Shown here: in pieces, positions 3,106-60,066 of the stretch | Position numbering within the stretch: position 1 is the stretch's first letter | Layout of the letters: each line of letters begins with the position of its first letter | From: Rhizaria sp. SCN 62-66 | Taxonomy: Eukaryota | Reading direction: 5' to 3' | DNA: 64,000 nt | Assembly: GCA_001724265.1 (NCBI GenBank) | Contig: MEDY01000017.1 | Span: 1-64,000 of the forward strand | Position numbers and translations under genes: made by a program | Notes under the pieces: model-generated | What the model saw: only the letters and a program-made list of their open reading frames with translations | Told to the model about the DNA's origin: nothing | Database searches by the model: none

Positions 3106-4203
3106 TCACATACGAGACTTCCGACGAATTGAACCGCCTCTGCGATGCATGTCATCCCACGGGCGCTACTGCCACTTTTGTTGTTGCTGCTGCTGCTGCA
3201 GATCTTGCCCATGCTTATGACGGCGCTAGATCAGCAGCGACAGGTCCGCAGGGCTTGTGGAAAGAATGTACGTTGTAGACACCGCTGCAACATCTGCCGC
3301 CGCAGATGCGTCAACAACATTGCCACTGGCAGCCGGCGACGCCGCTACAGCAGTGCCGCTTGCAGGACTGGTACAGACAGCGCTGATGTTTTCATTGTTA
3401 TGTGGTGAAGCAAGTGCGTGTCCGGCAGTGAGACCGTGCAACAACACACGATGCGGCCGCTGCTGCGACCGCTGCTGCGACCGCTGCGACTGCTGCTGCT
3501 GTTGCTGCTAATGTTGCTGCTGCTGCTGGTGGCGACGGCTGCGCACTGAAGCGACGCTGTTAGGCGGCGTAACCGTGCCGACCGGCGTAGCATCAAAGCC
3601 GACGTTTGCGCGGGAAGAGCCTGCGCGAATGCAAGTACGTGAACTCGCGCGCGTCGCCGGAGTCACCGTTGTCGCCACAAGAACTGATGCTGACACAGCC
3701 GTGGCGGATCGCGAGCCGGAGCAGGTCATAGGTGTCCGCGCGCGCGCTGTTGTCTGACTCACTGCAGCTGCGCCGCCACTGGCAGGAGTAACGTCGCGGC
3801 GACGCGAGGGCGTCATTGCGGCCACGACTTCCGTTGTTACTTTCGCTGTGGCAGGCGTTGCCGGTGTTGCCGCCGGGGTCAAGAGCATGTCACTCTCGCC
3901 ATCTGCAAACGTGAAGTGGTCGATTGCGGTCGTAGAAACAGCACCGCCTCTGGCGCCGTTGCTCGTGTTGACCGCGGCGCTGCTGCCAGCGCGGGCGTCG
4001 TCACTGTCACCAGCCTAAATGTCAGACAGCGCTGTGTCAAAGTCGTCTCGAGTGCCAGCGCCCGGGAGTGCATTGCGTGCACGATGGCCCGGACTTTGCG
4101 CGTTGCCGAGAGTGTCGGCGTTGCTGCAAGCGGGACTACGAGAGCTAGAACGACGACTGATAAACGTGTCGCCGTCATTTTTGTCAGAGCCGTCGTCAGA
4201 CAT
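3106..4203 (-). CDS. Low-complexity Ser/Thr/Ala/Gln-rich hypothetical protein (~365 aa) with four in-frame TAG codons; N-terminus uncertain
   Basis: Track ORFs 4015-4203, 3508-3888 and 3226-3447 share one frame and are separated only by TAG (4015-4017, 3508-3510, 3226-3228, plus 3166-3168). The first non-TAG stop is TGA at 3106-3108. It has two polyQ tracts and no recognisable domain. Confidence 0.6.
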
Positions 4204-8108: not shown

Positions 8109-9761
8109 ATGTCAGAGCGGCAGCTTAACTATGACGACTTTCTCTCCGCGACAGCGGCGCTTATGTCGCTCGCGTCCACCTCCGAAGGCATTAATGAGCT
8201 CGAAAGAATTGTGGTGGTGGAGTAGCCCGGGTATGATGCGCAGCAGCTCCACCTTGCCTGCGCCGAGCACGGCCTCTACGACTTTCTCACACGGTCGCTC
8301 GGCTACGCGGCGGACGCCCACCGCCTCGAGCGCTTGCGCGCAACGCTCGCCGTCCTCGCAGCTCTGACAGCTGGCTCCCCCGGCTGTTTCGCGCTGCTCG
8401 AGTGCGGTGCGGCGGAGCAGCTCTGCGGCCTGCTGCGCCTTGGCGAGTCCTGGGTCGCGGTCACGCGCGCCGTGCAGACGCTGGCCAACATCGCCGGCGA
8501 GGGCCGCGCGGCCGCAGCGGCGCTGATCGAGCGCGGCCTGCTTACACACGTGTGCCGCCACCTGCGCGAGCTGCGCCGCGGCCGCGGCACCGCCTCCGCC
8601 GGCTTGTTAGACCTGTACCTCGCGCTGCTGGAGCTGCTGGAGCTCGTTCTGCGCGTCTCGCCCCCGCTGCCGTACAGCGCGACAGCCGCGGTCGTGCCCG
8701 AGCTCGCGCTCGTCCTGCGGCACCAGAGCACGGCGTCGTTCGCGGGGACCGGCGCGATTGCAACGGCGACGAGTTTGCTCACCTTCATCTTCCGCGAAGA
8801 CGCACCGGGCGTGCGGTTCAGCGACTTGTTCGACAGCAGCGGCGATGGCGCCAGCGGCGACGGCGTCAGCGACGGCGGCGGCGACAGCGGCGATAACAGC
8901 ATCTTTGCGCGCGTGCTGCCGCATTTGGATGGCCCGCCGCACCGGCGTGCCCCCGCACTGCGCCTTGTCGCCCAGCTCGCGGCGCTCGAGGACCAGCCCG
9001 CGCGGGCCTTCACGGCGCCCGTGCTGGCGCGTCTGCAGCGGCTGGCCGGTGCGCTGAGGCCCGGGGACGCGCGCGCGATGCTGGAACTGCTCGGGATGGT
9101 GGCGAGCCTGCTGACCGGGGAGTCGCCGCTGGTGACGCGCCTGCTCGAGGCGCGTGTGTTGCAGACGCTGCTGCCGCGCGTGCCTGCGCCTGCGCCCGCC
9201 GGCGCGCCTGCACGCCTGGCTGTGCAGCCTGGCGCGCCGGCGCAGAACGCTTGGGAAGTTGCTCATGCGCTTCACGACGCGCGGGTTTTCGAGGACAGCG
9301 CGTGGGAGATCGCGGACGAGATGGCGCGGATGCTCACCAACGCGCTGCTGCGCGCGCACACGGCCGCCGCCGATACCGACAGCGCGGGCGCGGCGGACAT
9401 GGCGCGGCTGCTGCTTGACGCGGGCGCGATGCGTTACTGCGCGCATGCGCTGTCCGCCGCCGCCGCCGACGTGTCTGCGTCCATCGAGTGCAGCCACAGC
9501 GACACTGTGGGGACTCTGATCGACGTGGCGCGCTGCCTGATCGGGGCCGGCGACCGGGCCCCGGACACCGCGGTGCTAGCCGAGGGCGCGGTGCCGCGCA
9601 ACGCGTTTTTGGCGGCGTTCCTCGCGGCGGGCGGGCGCAGCGCGGTCCGCGGGCTGGCGCAGAGTGACTGCGACGCTGTAGACGACAACTTGCGCGCCGC
9701 TGCCGCGCAGCTGGAGGGGATCATGTGCGGCATTGTGGGCACGCCCGCCGAGATTAACTAA
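8109..9761 (+). CDS. Divergent armadillo-repeat (importin-alpha-like) protein, ~550 aa, with an in-frame TAG at 8223-8225
   Basis: ARM-like segments (LAALTAGS..LLECGAAEQLCGLL; AVQTLANIAGEG...LIERGLL). The track ORF starts at a TTG (8334); the nearest upstream in-frame ATGs (8109, 8163) lie before the TAG. Ends in TAA followed by AT-rich sequence. Confidence 0.65.
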
Positions 9762-10529
9762 GATCTAGATTGACGTTACTGATTATATGGCCTGTTTATT
9801 TATTTTCCTGTTTTAGATGTTCACGTAGCAATCTACAACAAGTTCGATTCGAGTGACTGCGCATTGTGTTCGTACACTCGCTCTGTCGCGTGCCTTGGTT
9901 TCGCAACACGATGCCCGCCAATCAAGTATTGTCATTTTTCACATTTCTGTCCTTATAACGTCTTACTCGTTGTACTCCCTGACTTGTTTTATTCAATATC
10001 TGCCGCATTATTGCCGACATCACTGATCAAGTGACACGTGGACGGTCGCATAATCCGACTGCCGTACAATCTCACTATTCGCAAATGAACAGTTCATAAA
10101 GAAAAACACAACAGTCACAACGGAGGTATATCATCAACCTGATTTTCTTTCTCTAGTCTTTGATATATCAGCACATATCACATGTTTACCCATTACTGAT
10201 TCCAGGCGGAGGTTCGAGTTCCGAAAAAAAAGACTGGCTGTCATGCTGTTCTCGCTCGACCCAACATGCAAAGCAGTTGATCTTCATCCTTAATCATCAG
10301 ACACGTCTAATTATCTAATGAGGTAGCAAGGCATTTATTAATCGATATATTGCCGCTATTGCTTTTGCGTTACACTGCGTCAGTTTTCCCTCGAGGAGCC
10401 TGATTGCAGGTGGATCTGATGAGGTCACTTGGAGGCGAGCGCTACGAATCAGTTCAGATATCTCATACAAATTTCCTTGTTTCCCTAAACACTTCCTGCT
10501 ACAGCGTACTTCATCGTCTGCCCCCGTTT

Positions 10530-13500
10530 ATGAGCAGGCGTGGAGTGAAGCGCACAAAAACAGTTTCTACAAACCGCTCATCTGATTCAGACAACGAATC
10601 GCATCACCGACTCCCTCCGAGTTCAGTCCTTCGCAATCCTCTGTCACATCAGAGCATTCAATCAATGTTATCTTCCGACTCCCTGGCTGCTCAGGCCGCT
10701 GATTCTAACATTGTGTCCACTACAAGCGCCATGCTGGACAGCCTGCAAGCGCCGATCGGCGACACGGCTGCGCTGCGCCGCATAGCCGAAGAGCGCCTCC
10801 GCGCGCAGCCGCGCGTCGGCACGCCTCTCATTGACTTTTACGCGACAGCAGCGCTCTACCCGCCCATCGGCGCCGAGTGTGTCCGCGCGCTGGCGGCACA
10901 TCTCCCCGCGGATGCGTACAAGCGCCTGGTTTTTCTGTTCGTGCGTTTCCTGGTGCAGTCGCTGCCCTACGCGCCGGGCCTGCACCCCTTCGCCGTGCAC
11001 CAGCCGGGCCGCCCCAACACCGCCTACGCGGCCGCCGCAAACGCGGAGGAGGCGGGACAGGGCGCGTCGGCGCCGGTGGTGACTGCGGCGCGCGAGTCGT
11101 CGCCGCTGTACGACGCCTCGGAGACACTGCTGCAGGAGTGGTTCAACCACCTCATGTTCGGCGCCAATGCCACGGCCATCATGGCCAAGATCGCCGACCT
11201 CAACGAACGCTCGGGCTCGGGCGTGTGCGGCGCCGTGCTTACGCCCGGCGAGCCCGCGTACTACTGCCGCACGTGCGGCGCGGACCCGTCGTGCATTCAG
11301 TGCATGCGCTGTTTCCGCGACTCTGACCATACGGGACACGAAACCGTGATGGCGCACGCCGGCGGCGGCTGCTGCGACTGCGGCTCGCTCTCGGCCTGGG
11401 CGCTTGGCGGCTGCTGCTCCAAGCACAAGGGCCCGCAGTCGGCGTGCCCACCCATGGAGATCCTGAGCAAGGTTGTGCCCGAGAGCCAGGTGCGCATGCT
11501 CGTGTTCCCGGTGCTGGCTGCCGTGGCACATGCCGCCGCCACGGCGCTGTCGCCGACGCCCAACAAGGCGCCGACGCCGCGCGACGACCCGAAGCTGCTG
11601 CCCACGCACGTCGCACACTGGTACCGCCACCGCGTGCTGCCCTGGGGTGCGCTCTCCGCGGTCACGGCGCCGTCCGAGACGTTACGCGAGCGCGCGCCGC
11701 GCCACGCGCTCGTTGTGCCGCGCGCGGACCTGGCCAACATGGCGCGCCGCGCCGTCGGCGACGTGGGCTACGCCGCCACCATGCAGGGCTACGAGCGCTT
11801 CCAGGCGCAGGGCCGCAAGCCTGGCGCGGCGGCCTCGCCCGCGGTGTCTGGTGCTGAGGACTCGTTCGGTTTTGTGGCCGCCTCGTCGACGCGCTCGGTC
11901 GTCTGCCTTGAAGACATCGCCGCGCCCAGGGACTTGCGGGCCACGGCGATGAAGCTCCGCGCCGCCGCCGCGAAGCCGGCCGCCAAGGGTACTTTCGCGC
12001 CGCTGCTGCTTCTCCCGTCGGCCTCCGTGTCCTCCCCCGCGATCGCCTCGGCGAGCGCGCACGACTCTGCGTCCTCTGCTGCGTCTGCTGTGTCATCTAC
12101 AGCCACTTCTGCGTCCCCTGTGGTCCCCCGCGCGCTGCTGTCACCGTCGTTCGCGCAGTCGTCGCCACTGTACATCCTGGTGCTGCACGACACGGACTCG
12201 CACACGTACGACCAGATCGAGGCCGCGCTGACGGCCGACGTTGCGCTGCTGGGCGCGACGGCGCGCGACATTGCCACGCAGGTCGATCTACGCGGCTGGG
12301 CCGTGCTACTGCTCTCGCGCGACAAGGACCACGTGCTGGCCGTGCAGCGCGCGCTGGCGGCGCGCACCGTGCTCTCCACCGTCTACCTGCAGGGCCACGC
12401 CGTGCGCACGCCGGTGTCCGAGTTCGACGACGCGTGCGCCGCGCTGCTGCGCCGGCACCCGTAGCCCAACATCGTGGCCGCCACGCTGACCAACACCGAG
12501 ATCGTGGACCCGCTGGGCGACCCCGCGGTGGAGCGCTGGGCCGACGCCGCGTGCGGCATGGCGCGTCTCTCGCCGCAGGAGTGGGCCTGCGTCGACAGTC
12601 TCGGCGTGACCCCAACCAAGAACGGCTTCGGCGACCTCCGCAGCGAGGAGTCGCTCAATCTCGCGTTCCAGGGCGCCGATGCGGCGGCGCCGCCCATCAC
12701 CGAAGACTCGCTGGCGGACCTCGCGCGCGCCCCCGTCACGGCGACGCTGGCCGCGCGCGTGGCGCGCCGCTCGCGCGCCGTCAACGGCCACATCGAAGCC
12801 GTTGCGGCGGCAAACCCAGACTGCAGCGCGCTGAGGCTGGCTGCGCAGACGGAGCTGTTCAAGAGCCACCACTACATTTTCCCCAATTCGCCCACGGCGA
12901 CTTTTTCCGCGCTCGACAACGCGGCCTTCGCGGGCGTGGCCCCGCTGGACCAGGTTCTGCCGCCGCCCGCCGTGTCGGCCGCCTTCCTGGAGGACGCGCG
13001 ACAGAAGCCCGACGCTGTGGCGGCCGCGTGGGCGCGCGCCACGGCGGCCGGCCCCGCTGCTGACCGCCTCGCGCCCGCCGCGTATCCGTTTGAGCTGCTG
13101 CACCAGAACCTGCAATCGAGCGGGCTCGAGCGCAACGTCGCCGGCGCCGCGTCCGTGCTGGTGAACCCCAGTGACCGCACGGCGAGCGTGCGTGCGTGGC
13201 AGTCGACGCCGCTCACATCTCAGCCCGACGCCCTCAAAGCATCCTACGCCGCGCGCAACTTTAACCCGAAGGCCTGGCGCTGGGGGCTCTTTGGCGGGCT
13301 GTACCGCGACGCCGACGCCGACGCTGCCCCTGCGGGCGCGGACTCCGAGGAGGAGCACAACGCGGCTGCCCTGCCTCTCGCGCGCGTGGCCCCCGACGCT
13401 ACTCTGCCCGGCATCTCGGTCGAGCTCGCGCAGTCGCCCCCGCCCGGCCTGGTGTTTGTCACCTCCATGGGCCGTCTGAGCACGTGCATCTCGTGGCTCT

Positions 13501-16500
13501 ACTCGTTTGCCAACAAGGCCAACTGCTTTCGCCAGTCCGTCGCGTGCACGTTCGCGCTGCCGCTGATGCGTGTCGGCGTGCCGTCGCCGCTGCTCAACAC
13601 GTTTATGCCGCGCGCGGTGACTGAGGCGGGCGCGTTTGAGAACGCCGACGACGTTGACGGCGCCCTGCCCATCGGCCGCGGCTTCGGGCTGGGCATGCCA
13701 GTCCTGAAGAGCATGCTGGGTGACGCGCCGCGCGGCTTCGAGACGAGCCCCACTGCGCTCGTCACCAAGCAGCGCGCGATGCGCACGAACGTGGAACGCG
13801 TGCCCGACCGCACCCGGCGCCCGGCGAACCCGTTCCGCAACGAGCGCAGCGTTCTCTTGCCGCTCGCGCTGTGCGCTGTGCCCGAGGTCGATGTTGAGCG
13901 CCTCGACGTCGACATCACCATGGAGCCTGCACGTATTGCGCCCACGCTTGCGGGTGCACTGCTTGCCTAGGATGCGCTTTCATCTGTCGCTTCCCTCGTC
14001 GACTGGCGTTGCGCTCCCGCTGAGAACGACTCTGAGGGCCGCCGCTGCGCGGGCCGCGTCGGCGAGATGTCGTCGCCGTCATACTCGCCCACGCAACTCG
14101 CGGCGCTCAAGAACTGCAACACTATCATCCCGTCGATGCGCCACATGTACCCGCTAAAGCACGTCGTGGCCGCCAACGCCCCCGTGACGACGCCTTCGAC
14201 GGCTGGGCAGTCAGCGTCCGTGGCCGCCGCTTGCGCCGGGCTGCGTGGCTGGGCGGCGTTCGCGGCGTGGGAGGCGCGCGTCGCGGCCGACCTCGAGCGC
14301 GGCCGCGCCGAGGCTGCGCGCGTGGCCGCGGGCGCGCCCGTTGTGTACGAGGAGGACGCCGACGGCGTGTGGCGCGCCAGCTCTGCTGTGCCTGATGCCG
14401 AGGTCGCGCCTCCGCTGACGACGGCGCTGCCGGTCGGCCGCGAGGCCGGACTCGTGCTGCTCGACGCAGTGATGCGCGATAACGACATTCTGACGCCGCT
14501 GCCAGCGGGCGCGATCAACGCGCTCTACTTTGAGCTCTTTGTTAATCCTTGGTTCAAGCGCGTGTTTGCCGTGTCGTTCGCGCGTCATTACTCGGCACAG
14601 CTTGCACGTGTGATCGCTATGGAGGGCATGATGCCCCCAGCGAATCGGTTTTCGCTCATTGGACTGGGCGTGCAGGTGCTGACGGAGCCGATGTTGACGC
14701 CGCTGATTATGGCAGACTCGCGTAGCTTTTCTCAAATCATGGCAACGCTCTACACGGCGATGACCAAGGCGGCGCGCCCACTGCCCAACGGACGCCTCGC
14801 GCCCGTGTCTATGACCATCATGAACGCCGTGGCGCACGCGAACCACATTGTGGCGAACGAGGGCGCGGCACCGCTGGTTTTCCTGGCTGATATGCACCCG
14901 TTCCGCAGCTGGCTCTTTACGCTGAGCAGCATGGAGGGCATGGACGCGACCACGCGCGAGGGCCAGCGCCACGTCGAGTTTGCCTCCAACAACTGGCAAG
15001 AAGCCATGCGCCTGGCGTACAGTATTCATCCCACCACAACCATCTGGCTTCGCCGCCTGGCCTCGCTTTTTGACAATGAGCCTCTCGTTGCCTTCACCAT
15101 CAAGCAGCTGGAGGTTGCGCAGTCCAGCGAGCAGGTGATCACAAACGCGCTGCACGCCGCGTCAGGACGCCCCGTTGAGCGTCTCTACGCTCGCAAGGTG
15201 CGCACTGCGCGCGCCATCCTGCGCCAGGTGCGCGGTGCGCTGCAGCATCTGTGGCAGCGCCAGTGGAAGGAGTTTGCGGGGCCACCCGCTCTCTGCAACG
15301 CGCGTCTTGCGCTGGCGGCTGGCGACGACGAAGCCACGAAGCGTGTCGTGCCCGCTGCTGAGTTCGAGACTTTCAAGCCGGGTTACAACAACTCACTCGC
15401 TTACAAGGCCGGGGCGCGCTCTCGCGTCGCAGTGCCGTCGGGCCACTGGGTGCCGATGGCTCTCGGCGCCGCGCTCGAGACTGTGCTGTCGGTGCGGCCG
15501 CCGTGGGCATACTCCGCCTCCGAGGACGACGCTGACGCCGACGCGGGCGGCCAGTTCCGTGTCGACCCGCGCACGATGGCCGCCGAGGGGCTGCGCGTGT
15601 CCGTGTTCGCCCCGCTTCACCGCATGTTCATTCAGCTCTGCGCGCTCTTTGTCGCCAACTGGGGCGTTGAGCTTGACGACCTCCTCAGCTCCGCGGTCCC
15701 CTTCTCGCGCTTCAGTGGCGCTAAGAAAGCTTCCAACACTACGACTACTGCTGTTGAGGCAGCGGCAACATCCTCGTGTGTGGCTACCGAGACTGAACAC
15801 TCGAGTGAAGGAGCTGTGTTCATCGAGGTGGTTGACGGTGAGACTCCGGCTGAGGCAACATCGGCGACTCACGCCGCATCTGCCGCATCTGCCGCAACTC
15901 CCGCAGCGACGGCTATGACGGACGAGGGTGACGCATCTGCCAGTGCTCTGACTGCCGTGCAGCAGCGTGCCTCGCACAAGACTCCGCCATTGGTGGCCTC
16001 CGTGCCTCTTGCCGCGGCACCAAAGCGTGCGCTTTGGATGCGTTTGGCGGAGCCTGCGGCGCGCGCGATTGCGTTCAAGCTGCACACAGAGTCGAACCTG
16101 TACGTGCTCAACGGTGATGTGCCGATCAACATCTGCTTCCACTACTCGCGCGCGTGCAACCTTTCGCAGATGCTCGACGCCGACGTGGCGACTCTGCAAA
16201 TGACGGCGACCCGCCTGCGTCCTGAGTGGCTGATGACGACGCTCGCTGCCAAGTGCGGCATGCTCGCCCCGCTGGGTCTGGAGATGTCGCACGCCGAATG
16301 GGTCTCACTCGGCACGACGCAGCCTGAGGCTCGTGCCGCTAAGTTTGCCGCTGACTGGTTGAACTTGAAGAAGTTCTGGTCGCCCGAGAAGGCGGCCGCC
16401 GTCTTTGCACGCTTCTTTGAGACATTGATGCGTCTGTACGTGCAGCGCGACACGCTTTGCAACACCGACGACCTTGAGACGGGCAAGTATGTTGCAGTGC

Positions 16501-19500
16501 AAGCGCTTGCAGAGAAGCCGCAGACCTTCTCCACCATCTTCGGTGTGCTCACGCCCTTGGGCCGCGAGGGCAGCGGTCTCACGCAGACTGAGCTGGAGGG
16601 CATTCTCGCCGAGATTGCCGACTTCCATGCCGGCAGCAGCGGGCGCGGTGATGCGCGTGGCTCCGGCGCATACACGCTCAAGAAGCACGCGTGGGCGCTG
16701 TACAACCCGTACTACGGCCGGCGCTCGAGCTCGGCCGCGACGCAGCTTGCCGAGACGCGCTACCTGGAGGTGATGACGGAGCACCTCGCGCAGGCGCGCA
16801 AGGGCACCATGCGTCCCGCTGAGGTCAATGCTCTGGGCTACTCCCCGCTCGTCGCCAGTGTGCTCTACGGCAACGGCTTATCTGCTGCCAGTCTCAAGAC
16901 GCAAAGCCAAGACGTCACGCTGTCGGCGGTGCCGCTCTTCCCGCCGCCCGCCGTGCCGCGCCCGCTGCCGCGCTCGCTCGAGGCCCTGCACTGGTTCCTC
17001 TATTCCCCGCTGCTGTACCGCATGGTTGCCGTCGCGCTCCAGAGCGTCTGCACGCCGCTGTGCGCGCCGTCGCCACTCGATCTGTTCACTGCGCACGCGG
17101 CGCAGCACCCTGAGGCGCTTCCCAAGCGCTTCTCCAACATCACGCGCCGCGCCCCGCCTGCTCCCGCGCAGATGCCGGCCATTGATCTGCTGCCCGCGCT
17201 CCGTAACTTGCAGCAGGTGGGGGGTGCTGATGGCGAGGAGGTTGGTCAGCTTTTCGCGACATTAATGGAGGCTTTCCGCACTGGGGGACCGGGCGTTGTT
17301 GCCGAATCTGGCTCGCCTGCCACTCCCCTGCCCGCCGAGGAGTACCCCATTTCGCCCGTGCCTGCGCCGAGCGGAGAGGGTGCTGCAGCGCTCACGGCCG
17401 CGGCCGCGGCGGAAGCCGAGGAGCCCGCGCTCCCGCTGGACGTGAGTGTGGCGGAGGCGGAGCTGGTCAAGCACCGCCAGGGTGACCGCATCTTGCACCA
17501 CACACTGTCACTGCTGCTGATGTCGTCGTCTGCGCTTGTGGACGGTTTGTGGAGCGGCGCGAACCCGCTCAACAACGCGCGCGTGCTGCCTTCCTCCGTG
17601 CCTTCGCGCGACTGCCTCGGTCTCACCACCGTGGGCGGCGTGCGCGCCCCGGAGGAGGAGCCCTACGTCCCGCGCGCGCCCGCCGCGAACGCGCCCTACA
17701 CGGGCTCGATGGCGGCGTCGTCTGTGTTCACGACGACCGACGTGCCCTTCACCACGTCGCTGCCGCTGCACGGGCTCGTGCTCGACCTGCTCACGGCGCC
17801 CACCACCGCGCCCTTCCCCACTTCGGCGCAGACGCCGCCCCGCTGCACGGCGCTCACTGAGGCCACGATTTCCAATACGCTCATCGACTACCTTGCGCTC
17901 CTGCTGCCGACCGACGCTCCCGCCTCCACGGCGCCGACCCCCGCGGCCGCGCCCTCTGCGACGAGTGATGCTGCGGCGCCGACCACTGCGTCGTCCCCTG
18001 TTTCGTCGCCCTCCAGCCCCGCGGACACGGCGGCGACGTTGAGTACCGCTGCGCACGCTCCTCTCGTGCGCTTGGTTGTGGCACACGTGCTTGCAGTTGC
18101 GCGCCGCGCGACTTTCGCCCTGCACATGGCGAGCGCCGAGAGCTCGTCCTCGTCACTCGCGCATCCTGCGTGGTTTTCGACGCAAGAGGACGTGCCACTG
18201 TCCGTTTTTCAGGCCTCGAACTGCCCCGCGCCGCTCGGCCCCATCGTCGCGCGCCTCCTGCCGCGCATCCGCGGCGACGCGGCCCTGCTCGCGGCCGCGG
18301 GTTTGCGCGCTGACGCGCCCACTGCCGACGAGTCTGCTGACGGCGCCGCGACTGGTGCGGCCAAGTCGAAGCTGTCTGCTGCGGAGCGCGCGAAGCGCCA
18401 ACGCGCGGCGATGCTCGCCAAGATGAAGTCTAGCCAGAGCAAGTTCATGGAGAAGCACAGTGACGACTTGGACCGCGTGATTGACGAGGCCGCGCCCGCG
18501 GCAGCTGAGCTTTCGCGCCCGCCCGAGACGCCTGCCGAGCTGCGCCAGCAAGCGTACGCAGCCCACGAGGCCGCGCACGGCGTGTCGCTGCAGTGCATCG
18601 TGTGCATGGACAACTTGGCATACGGTGTCGGCAACGAGCTCATGCTACTTGGCTACGCTCAACGGCAGAACCTTGATAAGGCCGCTTTCTATGGCGCCTA
18701 CCAGGTCGGCTCAGAGCGTCGCCGAGTTGTCACGGGCATGCGTCTTTGCACCAACGCACAGGCGGGGCCACAGGAGGCCTCAGCGGCTGCTGCTGCCGCA
18801 GCAGACACGTCGATGGCGCATCGCTTGATCACGCGTGGACTAGTGGCCCCGCTCGGGCAAGTTGCGCTGGGGAGCCTGGCTGATCTACAGAGCGACCCCA
18901 CAGGCGAGAAGGTTCACGCGCGCGCCCGCGAGGCATCGGCGCAGTTACTGCACGAGATTGCGTCATGGGGACTGCCTCCCTTGGCTGCGGCTGACGCCGT
19001 GCCCGTGAGCGAAGTTCTGCTTGCAGACCTCACCAGCACTTCTGCGGCGTTGGCGCGGCGCAAGGCTCTGGCAAGCCACTCCGTGAGTCTATCGACGGCG
19101 ACCGACGCGGTCGACATCGTGTTCCGGGATGTGTTGCTTCGTGAAAGTTTGCCCCCCTACGTCAACGCGATAGTTGAGCAGCGTTCGGAGGAGCTCATGC
19201 ACGTTGCCAATAGCCTACTTGCACGTGACGCGCCGCTGTTGGCGCACCTGACGGAGCAACAGCTCGCGCGTGCGATCTCGACGCGGATCAAGAAGTACTT
19301 CAAGCTGATCGCTTTGACGAGTCCAGCTGAGCGTGCACGTGCCGCGGCCAGTAGTCGCAGTGCTGAGGACGAGGACGTGTTCGTCGATGCTCAAGGCTTC
19401 GCTGACAAGACCACCGCCAAGTCCCCGACCAAGGCTGCCGATGCTGCGCCCGCGCCCGTTTCCGGTGGTGATGAGCCGGCTGCTGCCTCAGCGGTGCCTG

Positions 19501-19847
19501 CGGGATTGGCGTCGGGAAGCGAGGAAGAGGAGTTCGCAGAGCCCTATAATGCTCTTGCTGATCGTGCTGATGCTAATGACTCAAGCTCTTCATCTGATGA
19601 CGAATTGAGGGCCCGGCTTGCCTATGCAAATGCCTCCAGTGAAGACGAAGATGACGAGGACGGTGAGATTGGTCAGTTAACTGATTTGTTTCGGATGGTC
19701 GCTCGCGGCGCCCGCCGCGACCGTCGCCGTGCCCACCGCCGCGGCGATGCTGATGCCGACGACGGCAGCTCCCAGAGTACCAGCTCAGAGAATACGAGTG
19801 AGAGTAGCCCCGCCACGAGCGAGTCGGAGATCGGCATGATCACCTCC

Positions 19848-19907
<60 letters not shown>

Positions 19908-22900
19908 GATGATGATGACAACAATGACAACAATGACAATGATATCGGCGGGGAGAACCCCAACGCCTTCCTGACGCGCTTTGCCGGGTATCGTTCGCAC
20001 ATGTCGGTCAATGACGAGACTGCAGATGAGAGGAGGGTGACTCCTGGGAGTGACTTTGAGGTGTCTCGCGCCATGGTTGATGCAGTCCCCTTCACACAAT
20101 CACGCATGCTGCGTCCGCACCTAAGCGACATCGAGAGCGACGGCGACTCCGAGGCCGGCGCCGACTCGGAGGATGACGCGCCCGCACTGTCGTCGACTCT
20201 GTCATCGACTGCTTTGGAGCGCGCGTCTTCTACCGGCTCAACGGGCGCTCTGCTGCACCGCTTCACGGGGAGCCATGACGGCGGCGCGGCCGACAGCGCG
20301 CCGTCACGCCACTCGCGTGCGCGCCAGGAGCTGGCTGCCATGCCCTCGGGCTTCGACCGCGACATGTACTCGCTATTTGGCCGTTCCTACTTTAAGTGGC
20401 GCAAGCGAGCGCTCGAAAAGCGCCATGTGCAAGCGCTTGTCGCAACCTCAGCGATTACATACGCGGCGGGCCTGGGCTCTCTGTCGTACTCGGCCACTGC
20501 TTCTCGCCTCGAAGAGGTGGTTTCGGCGTCCGCCCCTCAAGACTCTGGCAAGATGGCTTTGGAGACCTGCGTTGCGGGTGCAACCACGATCCGCCAGCGC
20601 TCTCGTCTGGTGAATCGTATGTATCTCGTGCTGCAACACCTCGTGATCGCCGTGAACGCTGAGGTCAACCGCGCGATGGAACCTGTGGGCGCCAACGATG
20701 CCGGTCGTGATGCTTTCCTCACCGCGTTCGCGAGTCCTAAGGCTGTGACGGCGCGTCGTCGCCTGCGCCAGCGCCGTCAGCGGCTGTTGCTGCTGCTTGC
20801 CATGGTGAATGAGCTGCGTATGAACCGACCGTCGACGATGGGTCGCGGACTTAATGAGGCCATTGTTAACCCAGAATTCACCGACGACGTGCCTTTCTAC
20901 GTGCCGCCGCGTGCGTTGCTGGCAGACGATGAGGATGAGATGAAGGAGCTTGTCGAGACGTGCCGCACGACTGCCTGCAAGGGGAAGTACCCTCACCAGC
21001 ACCACAGTCACCAAAACCACCGCGACCACGACGTGGGCGAGGGCGCGACGTTCTGCACCGACCGTGCCCCCGACGGCCAGCAGGGCGACTGGGTGTCGTC
21101 GCAGGCGGCCTACATGCACGTGCACAGCAAGATTAGCGCGGGGCCCTACGCTCCGCTCTGGTCTGAGAGCTCCGTGTCGATCGCCTTCTGCGGCCACGCC
21201 GTGCACAAGAAGTGCGCGACGCGCATCCCCACGGCCGTCTTTGGCCCCACGTGCCCGATGTGCCGCAGCATCTTCAACACGACGCTCCCCGTGCTGGTGC
21301 CGCAAGTGCTGCCGCACTGGGTTTTGGTCGACAACCCGCGCCGCGGACGCCGCAGCTCAGTCGACCATGCTTCCATCGCGCCGCCTGTCATCGATGTGGC
21401 TGTCGCCGCGCCTGTCCCGCTGCCTGACCTTCCCCGCACTCTTACTGTTGCCGCCGTGCCGCGCCCGCTTGCCACTCCAGTCGTTCGCGACTGGGCGAGT
21501 ACGGCCGCGCGCTGCGCTGGCGCTGCAGCGGCGCAGCTGAACCTGCGCGCCATGTACACATTCTTGTCCGCGCGCTTGCAGCTTGCTATCGCGCCCTCCT
21601 TTGTCAAAAAGTACCCGCTGCCTATTTCGCTTGAGACCACCGAGAGCCTGCCTGCTTCCGTGCCCTGGTACGGTGTCTACGGCGACTTGGTGCGCCAGGG
21701 AACTTCGCCGCTCGCGATGTGGTCGTCGCTGCTGCAATTCACTCACCAAACGCCGACTTCGGACGAGTCGACGGGCCGTACGATTCTGAAGAACTACGTG
21801 ACGTCGCACGCGGCGACGATTCTTGTGGGACTTAGCACCGGCGCGCTGCCGTCGCGCGTCAGTCTGCAGGAGGACGTGGCTCAGGGCATCGATCTTCTGC
21901 CCGTGCTCCACGGCTCCGTCACCGAGGCTGAGATGGGCTCCCGCCCCGTCTTCGCCAGCGTGGCGAAGGAGAACACGGCGAAGGAGAGCGCCGCGACGAA
22001 GGATGCTGTGACGCCGACGATCGTGTCGCAAAGCCCGTTCGCTGTCGCTGCTGCTGCTGCGACCGCGAGTGCGCTTGCGATGAACGAGTGCGAAGAAGAC
22101 ATAGATGATTTCGGCAACGTCATCCCGCGCGCGTCGGCTCCCACTGAGCATCTCTCTGACACGCACTCTGGCGTTATCATGAGTGCGCCCAGTGCCGCGA
22201 TGTCGCACACGCAGCCGGACAAGTGCGTGGCTGGACTGCAGAGTGCGACAGGTGCGTTGCAGCTTTCCCGCGCTCCTGCAACTGTGCTTTCACAGGTCAC
22301 ACAACGCTCGCTCGACGCTCTCGGTGCTTTCTTCGCTGTCGCGCAATACAGCGCTCTTACTGACGACGCCGTGATGAAGCCGCTGCGCTCTATCGCTTGG
22401 GGCGGTCTGGCTGCGTCTCTGCTGCCGGCTACCGAGCTCACGCAGTGGCAGGCTGACGCACACGCTCCCGGTGCGACGCTGCCGTTCATGCCGTCTATCC
22501 ACGCGCGCGCCACGTCGCGTCCGCCGGAGCACCACTCGCTGTGGCAGCTGCTGCCGCCTCTACCCCTCAGCACCAACATGACTGAGCTTTTGCTCATGGC
22601 GCTGCTCTCACTACCTGTCGCTCTGTCGCGCCCCGAGGACGTCGTTTCGGCTTCCGCCGCAGCGTCGTGGGCGTGTGTCGCTCCCACTACCTCGTCTGAC
22701 GCCCTCGCCCTGGCGCGCGCGTCAGCGCAGGAGCTCGCCCGCCGAGGCGCCGTCCCGCCGCTGTCTTCGTTCTTCACGCTTAAGGGCACGGAGGGCGCGG
22801 CCGACGCCGCGCGTTTGACGGCACCCGCACTCTCTCCCTGGTCGCCTGACCTCGCCGCGGTGGCGTCGATGACCTACTCGCTGGCTGCGGTGCAGGCCGC

Positions 22901-25154
22901 GCTCACCGCGGGCTTCGTGCATGACTCGGACCCCTTACTGGCGGACCCCGAGCCGTCGTTCGCGGCGGGCGCCGCACCCGCACCCGTGGCCGTGTCACCG
23001 TCGACACAGGACAGCTCGCGCGCGGCGGCCATGCTCGCACTGCCGCAGGACACCACCGCGGTGCGCGACGGCGTGCGCGAGCGCGCTGCTGCGGCCCCCG
23101 CGACGGCCGCGAAGCCCCAGGTTGTGACGGCGTCCAAGGCGACGGATATGACGGGGCTGGGTCTCGGTCTCCTCTCGGTGCGCCGCCACGGCTACGCGCC
23201 GCCGAACCTGTTCCCCGAGGGCGAGGACGCGGCGGGCTCGTCGTCGCTGCTGTGCGCCATGTCGCTGACGCTGCGCGAGCTCGCGGCGCGCTCTGGCGTG
23301 GCCGATGTGGCCGACTTGGACGCGCTCATGCTGTCGCCCGCCGAAGCGGACAGCTTTGCGCGCGCCGTCGCGACGCTGTGCCACGACCCGCGCACCGTGG
23401 TGAGCGCGTCTGCGCCCTTTTACTCGAAGCGCGCGCGCGTGAGCGCCGACGTGCTGACCAAGGGCCTGGCTGCTGCCGTAGAGACGATGCCGGCTCAATG
23501 GCGCCGCTACCACGGCTCATTGTACACGCGCATGCTGCTGCTGTTGCTGCCGTTCTTGCGCCAGGCCGCCGTGGCCTACGCAGGCGCGGTGCGCTCGTCG
23601 CCGCTCCGCATCCTCACCGCGGCCGGCGCCGGTGCTGCGGGCGCGACCGCGGCGCACGCATTCACGGTGCTGGGCAAGGCGCCGCTGGAGATCACGCAGC
23701 CGGAGTTGACGCCCGCCACGCTCGAGTCGCTGCTCAAGACGCTGCCCGGCATCACCGCGTCGACGGGCGCCGTGTCTGCGTTTACCGGCGTGTCGCTCGC
23801 CGACACCACGGGCCCCGCGGGGGCCGCGGCGCCCGGCGCGTCGGTCGAGGTGCACCAGGGCTCGGTGTTGATGCTCGCACGCGAGGCGGCCCTGCTGTGC
23901 CAGTACCTTGGCCTCCCCGACGTGTTCTCGCTCTTCACCAGCGCGGTCGTCGCGGGCGACCACAGCACCACTCCCGTCGCCGCGGCGGCCGCGACGTGGC
24001 TCTTCAACATCAACGCCACGCTCGCGCACGACGCTCTGCTCGAGTCGCCGCACCTCTTCCCAGCAGCCGCCGTACCCGCCGCCGCTGGTGACGAGACCAA
24101 GGAGCCCTGCGGCGCGGTTGGCGTGGTGGGCTCCCCGCTTATCACGGTGTACCCGAAGCGCGCCGCGCACGTGCACGCCTCGGACGACGCCAGGCCTGCG
24201 GTCGAGGCTGCGCCGGCGGGCGGTCCCGGTCTGGGCTCACTCTTCTCGCACCTCTTCTGCCTCACCGCGCCGGTGCGCCCGTCGCTGCTGTCGCTGATGG
24301 CGCCCGACCTCGCGCGCGATCTCCCGGGCACCACGCGCTACTTCACGCGCGCCGCTGCGCCGTCGGGCTCGCGCGCGGTAGTGCCTTGGGGCGCGCTGAG
24401 TTACCCCGCGCCGCAGCTGTGGCTGTCGCTGCCCACGCCGCGCCCGCTGCGTGCGCCGCGCTTTGTGGAGCTGCCCCACTCGTTTAACGACCTCTTCATG
24501 GCGTCGGCCGACTCTGAGCTCATGGCCTGCGCGGTGTGCAGCGCGGCGATCGACACGCGCGCGCGTGAGCAGAAGATGACCGAGACGTTGGAGCGACTGG
24601 CCGGCGGAGACGCGGGCGCTACGCACGACCACAGCGGCCAAATCAGCAGCCGCGGCTCTGCGCCGATGATGCGCATGCCGGTCATCTGCCTGACGTGCGG
24701 CGCGACGCTCGACGTCAACGTGTGCGACGGCTGCGAGGCCGCCGAGCGCGGCTTTGGCGTCGGCTTTGGCGTCGGCGCTGGCGCTAACGCGAACGACCCG
24801 TACGTGGTGCCGCGCGCCACGACCAACGTGCTGCGCCAACACGCGCCGCAGTGCTCGGGCTCGCTGGGCGTTTTCTTCCACGTGAAGCACTGCGCGACGG
24901 TGATTACGTGGCCGACGCGCATCGACACGCGCAACGACGCGATGCGGCGCGCGTACCGCTACGGTTCCCCGTATGTGGATGCGCATGGAGAGCTGGACGT
25001 GCACCTGCGCCGTCGCCGCCCGCTCTTCCTCGATGCGCGCAGGCTCGAGCATCTCCGCGGCTATGTTGCCACAGGCACGCTGCCCGCGCTCGTGTCGCGT
25101 TTGATTGATAACGAGGTTGAGTACGCGCCCATCACCAACGAGCATCAGTTGTAA
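10530..25154 (+). CDS. UBR1: UBR1/UBR2-family N-end-rule E3 ubiquitin ligase, ~4870 aa as one ORF reading through TAG at 12462-12464 and 13968-13970
   Basis: UBR box (CGAVL..GEPAYYCRTC..DPSCIQC..CF..SDH.GH..GGCCDCG...W...CSKH, ~11217-11426); ClpS-like domain (~12168-12390); FKRVFAVSFARHY..LGVQVLTEP; R..HVEF; RING CIVC...CGHAVHKKC..CPMCR; C-terminal CLTCG and SPYVDAHGELD..LRR.RPLFL. The three track ORFs share one frame; terminal TAA. Confidence 0.9.
19848..19943 (+). repeat. (GAT)n microsatellite encoding a poly-Asp tract, followed by GAC/AAC/AAT repeats
   Basis: Directly visible GAT run with one GGT interruption inside the UBR1 CDS. Confidence 0.95.
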
Positions 25155-25783: not shown

Positions 25784-28700
25784 ATGAGCAACCGTGGCCA
25801 ACGGTCCCGCCAAGGGACCCCCCGGGACACCAGGCGCGCCACGCCGCCGCGTAATCCCGTGGCCGCACCGAGCGCACACGTGTCCCCCACAGGCCTCCCG
25901 GTGCTTTCGTCTCCGACTGCGCTCGCGTCCCCGCTGCCCCCTGTGGCCGGTGACGCGCTTGCTGTGGGGCCTGCGCACGGCCCGTCGACGGCGCGACACT
26001 TGTTCGCTGATATAGCCCCGCAGGCCGGTGCTGCGACTTCGTCCTCTTCATCCTCAGCCGGCCCAGTTGACGCGACCGCTGCAGCACTCGCTGCCGCAGC
26101 CGCCACCGCAGCAACCGCCGCGACCGCCGCCCTAACTCCTCAGTCAGTCCAGCCGCCCGTGCCGCATTTCCAACCCGCTTACCGCGCGACGGACGCGTAC
26201 GCAGCAGACGCGCCCGCGTGGCCCCAAGCGCTGCTGGCGCAGGTGGCGCAGATCGGCGACAACGACGGTGACGGTGACGATGGTGGCGGGCACTCGCGCC
26301 CGGGGGTGCTCACTGTTGCCAGTTTTGGGGCCGCGCATGCAATGCATTTTGGACTAGCCGGTTCTGCAATGGGCGACGGTGATATCATTCTCGCGTCTAG
26401 TGCGACTGGAGCAGCTCTTGCTCTTGCTCCTGCTGACGGCGCTGGCTCTGCGAACGCGGCCGACGACGACAACGACGACGACGACGGTGCCGAGTACGTT
26501 CCCGGTGATTCCGCCTCAGATTCCGCCTCCGACTCCGTCTCAGCCTTGGCCTCTGACCGCGCCCCCGGCTCCGGCGCCCGGCACCAACACCGCCGGCCCA
26601 GGCGCGCCGACAGCAGCAACAACGATGACGACGATGACGACGATGACTCGGACGCTGCCCCCATGGCGCCCGACGAGCTGGCCGCGATCGAGGCCGACCT
26701 GACTGAGCTGCTGGCGGATCAAGACGAGGCCGAGACTGCGCTGTTTTTACGGCAGCGCGGCCGCCGCACAACGCGCTCCGCGGGCGCCGACCCGCGCTTC
26801 GCCGCCTCCTCCCGCTTTGCGCGCGGGGCGACGGCGCACGCCGACGCCGGCGACGGCGAGGGCGGCGCGCGCGGCGGGCGCGGCGGGCCTGCGGGCGCCG
26901 CCGACGATGACGATGACGACAATGACGACAACGGCGATGACGACGACGATGATGATGATGATGATGATGGCGATCTGGCACTAGGCGCAGACGCGGCACG
27001 CAAGCGCGCGCGCAAACTTACTCAGCGCGCGCTCGCCGCCGTGGCCGCCCCCGCGCCCCCCCGCGGCGCGCGCGCTGCAACAGCCGTTGCGACCGGCTCC
27101 GGCCCTGCTTCCGCTGGGCGCGGTGGCGCGGGTGCGGGCTCTGGCTCCGGCTCTGGATCTGGCGCTGGCGCTAGCGGCGGCGGTGATAGGGCCGACGCGG
27201 ACGAGTTCGCGCGCCACCGCTACCGTCTGCGGTCGCGTCTGCCGCAGCAGTACCCCGCGTTTGCGACCGACGGCGCCGACGACGACGACGAAGAAGAAGA
27301 TTGGCGCGCGGACGACGGTGACAGCGACTCGCGCTCTGAGTCCAGCGACAGCGGCGGCGACGACGCGCGCGCGCCCGCCGCGGACTCGTCGGTTGCCGCG
27401 GCCGATGGCGACAGCGCTGCGCTGCCGCCGTGGCGCGTTCCGGGCGGGCGCAAGCGCTCGGCGGCCAAGGAGGAGGAGGAGGAGGAGGAGGAGGATGATG
27501 AGGTGGTCGAGGAAGAAGAAGAGGAGGACGCGCTCGCTGCACTGCTCGAAGACGCAACTCGCTACTACGGCGATGCCGTTGTGCTATCCGCCGCCGACGC
27601 CGCCGATTCTGCCGTGGCGGACGAGGCCTTTGACCGCTCGAAACGCTCGCGCCGCACGCGAGCGCAGGCCGCCGCCGCGGCAGGCGCCGCTTCTGGCGCT
27701 GCCGCAGCGCAGGATCCGCGTGCGGACGAGGACGCCGCCGCCGCCGCACAGTTACGCGTCCCTATGCGAACGCGCGGTGTGCTGCTCGAGGAGCTTATGG
27801 GCTCGTCCTCGGCCGCCGCGGTAGTGGCCGCGGGCGCGCAGGCCGCAGCAGGCCTTGCGCCGCCGCCACGGGAGGACGCGCAACTGCTCGACATGCTGCG
27901 CCGCAACCGCCGCCGCGCCCCGTCCCCGCCGCCGCCACCGTCATCTGGCCAAGCCGACGCGTTTGCGGCTGCGGCAGTAACGGCGGCGCGGACCGGCAAG
28001 GTTGCGCGCACGGCGACCGCGGCCGACGCGCCGTCCGCGGCCCGTGAGCGCGACGCAAATTAGCTCGCCACGGCGACGGCGACGGCGCTGCTGCCTGCGT
28101 CTGCGCCGCCGGACGCCGCTGCTGTGGCGCCACGGCGGAAGCCGCACAAGACGAAGCACTTGTTCGACGCTTTGCGCCAGCGCGCGCTGGGCGACGAGGC
28201 TGCCACACTGCTGTCGTCTGCTCAATCGCCTGGCGCGTCTAACGCCCCCGGGCGCAAGCGCGCGGCGGCGGCGCGCGCGGCTGAGGACGAAGACAACGAG
28301 GTGTACGTCGAGGAGGAGATCGATGAGGATCTGTCGTCGCGTGACGTGTCCGACCAATCCGACGACGGCGCCGCGTCCCGCCCGCGCCGCAGCCGCCGCG
28401 CCGCCGCCTCTGCTGCGTTCGACGCCGCAGAGGGCGGCGAGGACGGCGTGGGCGGGCGCGCGCACCGCACGACCCGCGGCGGCGCGCGCGTGAGTCGCCG
28501 TGAGATCGTCGATATCATGCGCGACAACGCGCGCACTAACGCGAGCCAAGCCACGGCTGTTGCCGCCGCGGCCGCCGCGGCTGCCGCGGGATTGCCGCTT
28601 CCCCCGCCGCCCGGCGCGGCAGGCCCCGCGGGCGCGTTTCCGCGCCGCACGCGCGCTGCATTCCGCGCGAGCTCTGCGATCAAGGCCGCCGAGGCAGTGC

Positions 28701-37700: not shown

Positions 37701-38326
37701 GCGCGTCGCCGCCCTCGCCGTGGGCGCTGCCGGCGGTGGAGCTCGAGGAGCTCGGCGACCACGTCTTCTCGTACTACTACGCGTCGCCGTACTCCACCGC
37801 GCATCCTGGGCTCTGCTTCTCGGGCCCGCCGCCCTCACAGCAGCAGCAGGCCGCGGACGAGCTCCCCCCGGTCGTCACGTCACTGACCCCGGTCGGCGTG
37901 GACGATAACGGCGTTCCCGTGCCAGATCCTGCGGCCTCGCTCGTCACCGTGTCGTCCTCGTGGGCGGCCTCAACGGCGTGGGGCGTTGAGACGGACGCCT
38001 GGAGTGCGCTACGCGCCGAGCTCATCAAGCGCCAGCCGCATTTGCCGCCGCCAGCGGGGCCGAACGAGCTCTCGGAGACGCTGGTTGAGGTGCTCCACGT
38101 GCTCGCCCGCCGCCGCCTCCGCGCACTGCAACGGACGTCAGAGAAGCTCTGGGCTGGTCGTCTGCCGGTGCCTGACGATCTCCGTGTGCGCGCGCCCGAA
38201 CTACTGCCTGCGCGCGCGCTGGTCTTTGCCCGTTTTCCGCTGCAGCGTCTGCGCACGCGCGTCAAGGTGCCGCCCCTGCCGTCGCCGAATGCGGCTGCCA
38301 ATGACGGCAAGGTTGCGCAGAAGTGA
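25784..38326 (+). CDS. Giant GON4L/YY1AP1/DUO3-like nuclear protein with Myb/SANT-like motifs, ~4180 aa reading through TAG at 28061-28063, 31922-31924 and 33656-33658
   Basis: Four track ORFs in one frame, separated only by TAG; terminal TGA followed by an AT-rich spacer. Motifs resembling GON4-family blocks: acidic stretch then RVSRREIVDIMRD (~28487), WTPARVDRLRAQAEGVAQLALQL (~29443), Myb-like FSEAETRLLARAAARYG...RRFLP (~32250), second Myb-like YVARYGRRWSMLAQFL (~35009). The CDS is well supported; the family call is moderate. Confidence 0.7.
30158..30232 (+). repeat. CGCGGCGGC-type 9-bp repeats encoding an RGG box (RGRGGRGRGSRGGRGGRGGRGGRGG)
   Basis: Visible in the DNA and in the translation of the 28124-31924 ORF. 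Confidence 0.85.
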
Positions 38327-59500: not shown

Positions 59501-60066
59501 AGACGAACCTTCATGATGTCAGCTTCATTATCTCCGAATAAAGCAACGCGAAGCCCTGCAGCTTGGACAACGCCCTCGGAAGCAATCCACGCGAGCATCT
59601 CGCGCACGCGCAGGTCGGTATCGACGATCTCCTGCACGCTGTCGGGCGCGGCGGTGACGGCTGCGTTCTCGTCACAAGCGCCCGCGACACTGCCGGGCGC
59701 GGGCACAGGTGTGGCGAGCTGCGCGTCCAGCGCGTCGAGGGACTGCTGCGAGGACCAGAGGGTATCGGCGGACGCGGTGACGGCGCATCGCTTGTCGAGG
59801 ATGGAGCGGACGAAGAGACCGCCGCTGGCGCCGCCGCCACCGATGCTCCGGGTGACGAGCTCAAGGCCGAACGGGAAGACATCGCGGTTGCGGTCAATCG
59901 CATCACGCAGTGAGAGCGAGGGCTGCGTAGAAAAATAAACAGCAGGGATGTGCCGATTTGTCATCGCCGTGCTCACTAAATGCACTGAGCTCGTCGCGGT
60001 AGACGCGATGGCGCGGGCGCTGCGCCGGGCGAGCGCACTAGTGCCGCGGGCGTGCAGGCGAAACAT
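53593..60066 (-). CDS. Giant SET-domain lysine methyltransferase (LSMT/SETD3/SETD6-like) with a mitochondrial-type presequence, ~2108 aa; exons 59509-60066, 53593-59361
   Basis: Intron GTTCGT..TAG 59362-59508 restores the SET-N motif RGLVSLRPRARGEVLLQLP; further motifs LLLPYVDMLNH, IRALRPIAAGEELCLAY, LLSRYGF. The N-terminus MFRLHARGTSALARRSARAIAST is Arg/Ser/Ala-rich with no acidic residues. Ends in TAA. Confidence 0.8.

Follow-up and report, generated by a model that had tools for sequence, protein, structure and literature searches.

We analyzed a 64,000-nucleotide stretch of eukaryotic nuclear DNA (hereafter the window; positions 1 to 64,000 of contig MEDY01000017.1, assembly GCA_001724265.1, Rhizaria sp. 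SCN 62-66) in which protein-coding genes carry TAG codons in frame. Six exonic TAGs in three intact genes indicate that UAG is very probably passed by the ribosome in the host organism. As the most plausible explanation we tentatively propose, with confidence a little short of even, that UAG is a sense codon read as glutamine (Gln), which would be decoded by a tRNA with the anticodon CUA alongside a weakened eRF1, and that UAA and UGA are the stops. The preliminary description of this DNA had relied on another open reading frame (ORF 3106-4203), where TAG sits in a polyglutamine (polyQ) tract, to argue that TAG is not a plain stop and that it means Gln. The first of these claims is now very probable from genes outside that ORF; the second is favored only mildly.

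The three genes and their TAGs are as follows.

10419..25154, plus strand: gene for a UBR1/PRT6-type N-recognin (the UBR gene), 4911 codons, terminal TAA.
12462-12464 (codon 682) and 13968-13970 (codon 1184), plus strand: in-frame TAGs of the UBR gene.
25784..38326, plus strand: giant lineage-specific ORF, 4180 codons, terminal TGA, no Pfam family.
28061-28063, 31922-31924 and 33656-33658, plus strand: TAGs of the 4180-codon ORF, at a G+C content (GC) of 0.54-0.80 and without in-frame TAA or TGA in the 200 nt on either side.
8109..9761, plus strand: gene with an exonic TAG at 8223-8225 (VVVE-TAG-PGYD), terminal TAA.

The UBR gene provides the clearest case. Its Pfam domains are a UBR box (269-336), a UBR1-like winged helix (2027-2115) and PRT6_C (4752-4881), and in PDB it matches the UBR boxes of PRT6, UBR1 and UBR2. 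An N-recognin requires the UBR box, the winged helix and PRT6_C in one chain. Because the first of these is encoded upstream and the other two downstream of both TAGs, the UBR gene requires read-through. The TAGs are not assembly errors: a DNA contig over 10293-17857 is identical to the window, and run X3, from another study, yields identical contigs over 5122-19835. Gene calls in JGI, ENA and Logan assemblies (P0128, P0127, P0277-P0279) are cut precisely at these TAGs. Moreover, a contig from polyadenylated RNA (polyA-RNA) aligns to 12076-12532 without gaps and with 4 letters differing, and therefore the TAG at 12462 is not spliced out. Among the 463 letter differences between contigs and window, 40 are listed by position, and those of the RNA contigs (4 here and 19 in a second contig, treated below) are not among them. 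In the run with the polyA-RNA contigs, T>C and C>T differences are equal in number (21 and 21), and the TAGs might be edited in the RNA.

Across the three genes, no frameshift and no in-frame TAA or TGA occurs over 9091 + 550 codons. The standard code would divide the UBR gene into three pieces and the 4180-codon ORF into four, yet within each gene the pieces share a frame and are separated by no spacer of intergenic composition. All five junctions of the two giant ORFs keep the frame, for which the chance would be (1/3)^5 = 0.004 if the pieces were independent genes. A gene decaying neutrally since an initial nonsense mutation would not be expected to retain 9091 codons free of frameshifts, TAA and TGA. 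Both giant genes also contain long Asp/Glu runs and Ala-rich low-complexity stretches. In the third gene, the 38 codons from ATG 8109 to the TAG have a codon-usage coding score of +0.40 in frame (the range is -0.28 to -0.56 for intergenic DNA and +0.17 to +0.40 for other window genes), and the following in-frame ATG, as read from the translation, lies about 290 codons downstream. The sequence upstream of TAG 8223 is purine-rich, unlike a 3′ splice site. Spliceosomal GT-AG introns do occur in the window, and the two that we mapped have a GC of 0.36-0.45, versus 0.54-0.80 near the robust TAGs. Small in-frame introns were ruled out as the origin of the six TAGs, given the GC-rich surroundings, the open frame and the one site bridged by RNA.

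When TAG is left open, 16 TAGs fall in frame in the 14 gene models of the window, and none of these models is interrupted by TAA or TGA. Six of these are robustly exonic (12462 and 13968 in the UBR gene; 28061, 31922 and 33656 in the 4180-codon ORF; 8223 in gene 8109-9761), and four further exonic TAGs belong to ORF 3106-4203. Three (8007, 41287 and 51025) fall in doubtful N-terminal extensions. One of them, TAG 41287, is near the N-terminus of a 2OG-Fe(II) oxygenase gene whose ortholog in the metagenomic relative L001 aligns just from residue 74, at 66% identity; the window N-terminus may therefore be mis-modelled, for example through an unrecognised exon. Two others are related to splicing, one very probably (1404) and one certainly, at the end of a mapped intron:

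59362..59508, minus strand: intron, GTTCGT...TATAG, 147 nt, GC 0.36; TAG 59364 is its final three bases.

Exon 1 of this gene (ATG 60066 to 59509) is exactly 186 codons long and joins in frame to 59361, so that the 1941-codon ORF at 53593-59418 plus its upstream exon amount to a gene of about 2108 codons. TAG 59364 is certainly a splice acceptor and not a codon. TAG 1404, in a B-box gene, is very probably the 3′ end of an intron as well: its context is aatttttag followed by CGG, and the AT-rich upstream sequence has in-frame stops, 5′ splice-site-like motifs and visible upstream exons. Several small 5′ exons seem to be present at 1400-1910 on the minus strand of the B-box gene, with an ATG near 1905, GTACGA near 1810 and GTGAGT near 1655. 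Of the ten TAGs that had originally been counted as codons, 59364 is thus certainly and 1404 probably to be withdrawn, and the accompanying observation that no TAG occupies a conserved column still holds.

The proposal of Gln originated with ORF 3106-4203, which has the following parts.

3106..4203, minus strand: orphan ORF rich in Ser, Thr, Ala and Gln, 365 codons, ATG 4203, terminal TGA 3108-3106.
4015..4017, minus strand: TAG codon 63, SDI-TAG-AGD, without in-frame TAA or TGA or a 5′ splice-site-like motif in the 200 nt upstream; local GC 0.58-0.63.
3490..3531, minus strand: polyQ tract HQQQQQH-TAG-QQQQQQ, with TAG at 3510-3508.
3228-3226, minus strand: further TAG, LLI-TAG-RRH, in the frame of the ORF.
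3166..3198, minus strand: second Gln run, QQQQQQQKWQ-TAG, with TAG at 3168-3166.

TAG occurs four times in the frame of this ORF (codons 63, 232, 326 and 346), alongside 20 CAG and 7 CAA codons, and neither TAA nor TGA interrupts it. Both TAG/Gln strings quoted earlier are present on the minus strand and in one frame: 3531-3490 reads CAC CAG CAG CAG CAG CAA CAT TAG CAG CAA CAG CAG CAG CAG, and 3198-3166 reads CAG CAG CAG CAG CAA CAA CAA AAG TGG CAG TAG. The span given for them (3166..3530) locates both and ends one base short of the CAC at 3531.

Thus, one TAG breaks a run made up purely of CAG and CAA, and a second comes immediately after the Gln codon that ends a Gln run. Among the mutational sources of TAG, CAG ranks first or second, accounting for 17-39% depending on transition bias, and of the stop reassignments in eukaryotes UAG-to-Gln is the most frequent. 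If TAG is sense, we consider the chances that its residue is Gln to be somewhat better than even; Leu would be considerably less probable, and all remaining residues taken together would be no more probable than Leu. The TAG of the polyQ tract would then be a synonymous C-to-T derivative of CAG. A CUA anticodon would be expected for the decoder because UAA remains a stop, and its source might be a copy of tRNA-Gln(CUG) mutated to CUA; CUA would be one change from either tRNA-Gln(CUG) or tRNA-Leu(CAA). The decoder would presumably act together with an eRF1 that recognizes UAG poorly, an argument put forward in PMC5304391.

A number of findings weigh against UAG having become a Gln codon, and they concern the residue, the strength of termination and ORF 3106-4203 in turn. 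With regard to the residue, no TAG in the window falls within a Pfam-matched or otherwise conserved column, and therefore its identity was never taken from an alignment. When the UBR stretch with both TAGs was searched with HMMER against 1.84 billion representatives (proteins of 2700-8600 amino acids were not searched), only its own pieces P0127 and P0128 and UBR-box matches emerged. A word-index search of shorter proteins returned the same two pieces, and PDB yielded UBR boxes only. Neither L001 nor L002, the two close relatives, has an ortholog of any TAG site; a large L002 ORF was compared with the 4180-codon ORF and rejected as its ortholog. Among paralogous or repeated segments aligned to the TAG sites, there are low-complexity matches only. 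Furthermore, ARAGORN finds no tRNA gene in the window, there is no Rfam match, and eRF1 is not among the genes encoded there. Both polyQ sites are located in one doubtful gene, and a TAG within a CAG run is a mutated CAG under any meaning of TAG, a change that a disordered tract would tolerate. Because ORF 3106-4203 has no relatives and its coding signal is weak, the polyQ context favors Gln just mildly and adds little more than a hint on residue identity. The original assignment to Gln keeps this mild contextual support. Its polyQ argument depends on a single codon of a low-complexity orphan ORF, it lacks a conserved column, and the only rhizarian precedent is Leu.

That precedent gives substance to the alternative that UAG is sense with another residue, Leu first (via a tRNA-Leu(CUA)) and Glu, Tyr, Lys or Trp possible, so that the polyQ TAG would be a tolerated Q-to-X change in a disordered tract. 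We regard this as unlikely, though deserving of serious attention. The rhizarian exLh (Sainouroidea, from Lygus hesperus) reads UAG as Leu and retains UAA and UGA as stops, with 384 in-frame UAGs in 71 transcripts, according to its description (PMC5304391). The window myosin also groups solely with Cercozoa-named and unnamed sequences (see below). Leu fits as well as Gln in several Leu/Ala-rich contexts (GALLA-TAG-DALSS, LGLD-TAG-VLGP and DPP-TAG-LVRARR), and CAG runs are often broken by single-base variants, as the CAC and CAT that also break the polyQ run illustrate. Codon usage argues in the other direction. As a Leu codon, TAG would occur 28 times less often than TTG (5 versus 140) and would rank below TTA (28) and CTA (40) among 1405 Leu codons in total, in contrast to exLh, in which much of the Leu is encoded by UAG. 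In addition, TTG supplies just 4-6% of TAG mutations, and 2 of the 10 exonic TAGs are within or beside Gln runs. Recoding of the pyrrolysine or selenocysteine kind was set aside, as we know of no eukaryotic precedent.

A second set of findings concerns how completely UAG has lost its role as a stop. In nine genes, TAG makes up 5 of 15,287 codons, which is comparable to AGA (4) and ATA (8), and the conserved genes (myosin, Utp14, calponin-homology [CH] and EF-hand) have no in-frame TAG. At the codon usage found here, TAG would result from about 65% of random nonsense mutations, and therefore the occurrence of TAG only is a weak pattern by itself (0.65^6 = 0.075). The preliminary caution that a CAG-to-TAG nonsense mutation would look alike thus applies with greater force. 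At the exonic TAGs, the +4 base is C in 7 of 10, G in 3 of 10 and never A or T (P = 0.037); for in-frame TAGs more broadly, the counts are C in 9 of 12, G in 3 of 12 and no A or T (P = 0.009). The base after CAG codons is C at 0.37, G at 0.31 and A+T at 0.32, and a purine follows 10 of 13 TAA/TGA stops. In human cells, a purine at +4 lowers read-through (PMC7089771). The excess of C therefore hints that termination still competes at UAG, and rarity, nonsense bias and +4 context together leave room for such competition by eRF1.

Among the terminators, 11 are unambiguous, and TAG is not one of them (TGA 6, TAA 5). If TAG made up 1/3 to 1/4 of stops, this outcome would have P = 0.01-0.04; thirteen genes are too small a sample. 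One further gene may end at TAG:

5987-7351, minus strand: S28-like gene; its first in-frame stop is TAG 6007-6005, and a TGA follows five codons on.

The S28-like protein covers positions 88-315 of 434 in the Pfam profile, with a score of 24.2 against a cut-off of 25. No C-terminal exon for it was found in 4250-6050, and neither ORF 5308-6000 nor four small ORFs match a family above threshold. In more distant relatives, 4 of 12 complete myosin genes have an apparent TAG terminator, and therefore TAG is an ordinary terminator in those lineages. The four genes (L004, L005, L011 and L016) apparently end in TAG, with the next TAA or TGA shortly after.

Perhaps the loss of UAG as a stop is at an early or ambiguous stage: the codon would be avoided as a terminator, rare in frame, mostly followed by C and found in long or fast-evolving genes, with a new tRNA(CUA), or else near-cognate tRNA-Gln, competing with eRF1 to insert Gln. 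In that case, it would represent a naturally occurring 'ambiguous intermediate' of codon reassignment and the first rhizarian change of UAG to Gln, independent of exLh, although this scenario is doubtful. A more conservative version, in which eRF1 still recognizes UAG weakly and context-dependent near-cognate read-through occurs with no dedicated suppressor tRNA, leaving reassignment incomplete, strikes us as slightly more doubtful again. It is consistent with the rarity of in-frame TAGs (5 of 15,287 codons), with C after these TAGs as opposed to purines after true stops, and with the confinement of TAGs to giant or orphan genes, away from the conserved ones. Serial leaky stops, however, would reduce the yield of the 4911- and 4180-residue proteins multiplicatively at two or three sites, and 0 of 11 clear terminators are TAG. 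The context sample is also small and includes the purine G after 3 of 10 TAGs, and the +4 bias is perhaps a dinucleotide effect, given C shares of 0.47 after CTG and 0.42 after TCG.

The third set of findings applies to ORF 3106-4203, which is probably a gene for a real, fast-evolving, disordered protein. Its stop-to-stop frame free of TAA and TGA is 398 codons long, a length reached in any frame by 12 of 2000 first-order Markov resamplings of 2900-4500, and the remaining five frames of the 3106-4203 span hold 6 to 17 TAA/TGA each. On the coding score, it reaches -0.02 in frame, and the two other frames reach -0.46 and -0.60. This in-frame advantage outlasts the first two TAGs and is gone after 3226 (segment 3109-3225 scores -0.35). 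The weakness of the score counts against the Gln account, as do the absence of a Pfam family and of a homolog among proteins of 200-639 amino acids (shorter and longer proteins were not searched). Contigs of polyA-RNA from a strain about 4% diverged cover 3682-4155 and 2878-3170; they give neither strand nor level. The first of these bridges TAG 4017 without gaps, with 19 other letters differing. A further point on the negative side is that the polyQ TAG at 3510-3508 is spanned by no listed contig of the four runs, because the CAG repeat draws contigs of other organisms, and therefore this codon rests on the window assembly alone. In each of the four runs, contig depth over 3336-4002 exceeds that of the adjacent bins by a factor of 20 to 100, and numerous contigs end loosely at 3490 and 3525. 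Because CAG-repeat contigs of other organisms pile up there, the depth is uninformative on expression.

An entirely different explanation for this ORF is that its TAGs are nonsense mutations or chance. The ORF would then be non-coding or decaying, or there may instead be a short standard-code gene from ATG 3888 to TAG 3510 (126 amino acids), with the CAG repeat running into the 3′ untranslated region. The orphan status of the ORF and a score near zero that is lost after 3226 are consistent with this idea, as is the fact that CAG-to-TAG transition is the commonest route to a stop. The match in length by 12 of 2000 shuffles leaves chance a small probability, and strain divergence is about 4% at this locus (19/474 letters) versus about 1% in the UBR gene (4/457). 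Nonetheless, nonsense or chance seems quite improbable to us. Four TAGs and zero TAA/TGA fall within 398 codons, when other frames have 6 to 17 TAA/TGA; the in-frame score stays about 0.45-0.6 above other frames in segments 2 and 3, past two TAGs; polyA-RNA contigs overlap the ORF; and in three further window genes there is clear read-through of TAG.

Several known genetic codes resemble the UAG-to-Gln change that we propose. Iotanema spirale (Fornicata) has a nuclear code in which UAG is Gln and UAA and UGA are stops (PMC5304391). The likeness extends to UAG being the only one of the three in frame, UAA and UGA terminating, a tRNA(CUA) being required and Gln being favored here. The two differ in that Iotanema belongs to an unrelated supergroup and that Gln was assigned there from many conserved columns and a likelihood test, rather than from context as here; in addition, in-frame TAG is very rare in the window organism, unlike in Iotanema. 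With exLh, the window organism shares rhizarian affiliation, an effect on UAG alone and retention of UAA and UGA as terminators. It differs in habitat (wastewater or bioreactor versus insect), in UAG frequency (5 of 15,287 codons versus abundant) and in contexts without a sign of Leu. Phyllopharyngean and other ciliates (PMC11687900 and PMC10553269) also uncouple the meaning of UAG from that of UAA and use the codon abundantly; we liken them by description only.

Codes with dual stop and sense meaning are another point of comparison. In Condylostoma, karyorelict ciliates and Blastocrithidia, position relative to the mRNA 3′ end decides between stop and sense. As described in 10.1101/2022.04.12.488043 and PMC12153298, such codes (UAA in Blastocrithidia) have a dual codon whose context decides, which the +4 C excess would fit. 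The ambiguous codons are, however, frequent in frame in those organisms, whereas here UAG is rare and no gene clearly ends in TAG. Near-cognate UAG read-through likewise makes a codon both stop and sense by context. A literature search revealed no cercozoan or wastewater protist with reassigned UAG apart from exLh, and in a paper on wastewater eukaryotes (PMC12021597) the terms 'genetic code', 'stop codon' and 'UAG' do not occur.

Judged by sequence, the host is a protist related to Cercozoa that lives in wastewater. It is uncultured, intron-poor and GC-rich; most window genes are uninterrupted, with a third-position GC of up to 0.8. Pfam identifies a class-VII-like myosin (motor domain E = 3e-219, plus MyTH4), as well as Utp14, a UBR1/PRT6-type ligase, and calponin-homology, EF-hand, 2OG-Fe(II) oxygenase, B-box and S28-like proteins. 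The closest named myosins are rhizarian, from an unidentified cercozoan (58%), chlorarachniophytes (51-53%) and Plasmodiophora (48%). A maximum-likelihood analysis of 24 myosins places the window sequence in an 11-row clade (SH-aLRT 100) whose members are only Cercozoa-named and unnamed metagenomic sequences. No named sainouroid sequence is among the myosin matches, and kinship with Sainouroidea is thus outside the scope of the tree. Near-identical DNA is present in bioreactor and wastewater metagenomes from several studies (2015-2025), and a contig of the organism in such assemblies reaches 144 kb. A metagenome scan with alignment A1 recovered 26 loci, of which only L001 (85%) and L002 (61%) are close; a metagenome scan with the myosin as query and two scans of prokaryote genome contigs gave no match. 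The myosin gene contains the second mapped intron.

47875-47873, minus strand: ATG start of the myosin gene; a simple ATG-to-stop ORF omits the WW domain.
47551..47721, minus strand: intron in the myosin gene, 171 nt, GTACGC...GTGCAG, splitting the WW domain; located by tblastn with the N-terminus of the 85% relative L001.

L001 is uninterrupted at this intron site (480-540). The 2OG-Fe(II) oxygenase gene (compared at window 41143-41360, plus strand, and L001 5187-6494, minus strand) is syntenic with the myosin gene in L001.

Nuclear code changes limited to UAG are known from few eukaryotic lineages and are relevant to the question of how the meaning of a stop codon can shift without lethality. 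If the proposed change is true, this organism would be a second rhizarian lineage with in-frame UAG, which would show repeated change in the group. It would also be a free-living wastewater lineage, possibly at an early stage of UAG change, and one abundant enough in wastewater reactors for assembly in several studies over a decade. There is a practical consequence too, because standard-code gene calling already cuts host proteins at TAG in public databases, as seen with the UBR pieces of 577 and 498 residues; a 3695-codon standard-code ORF follows the second UBR TAG. Finally, the very low usage of UAG together with the preference for C at +4 could offer a view of the intermediate state over which the codon-capture and ambiguous-intermediate models disagree.

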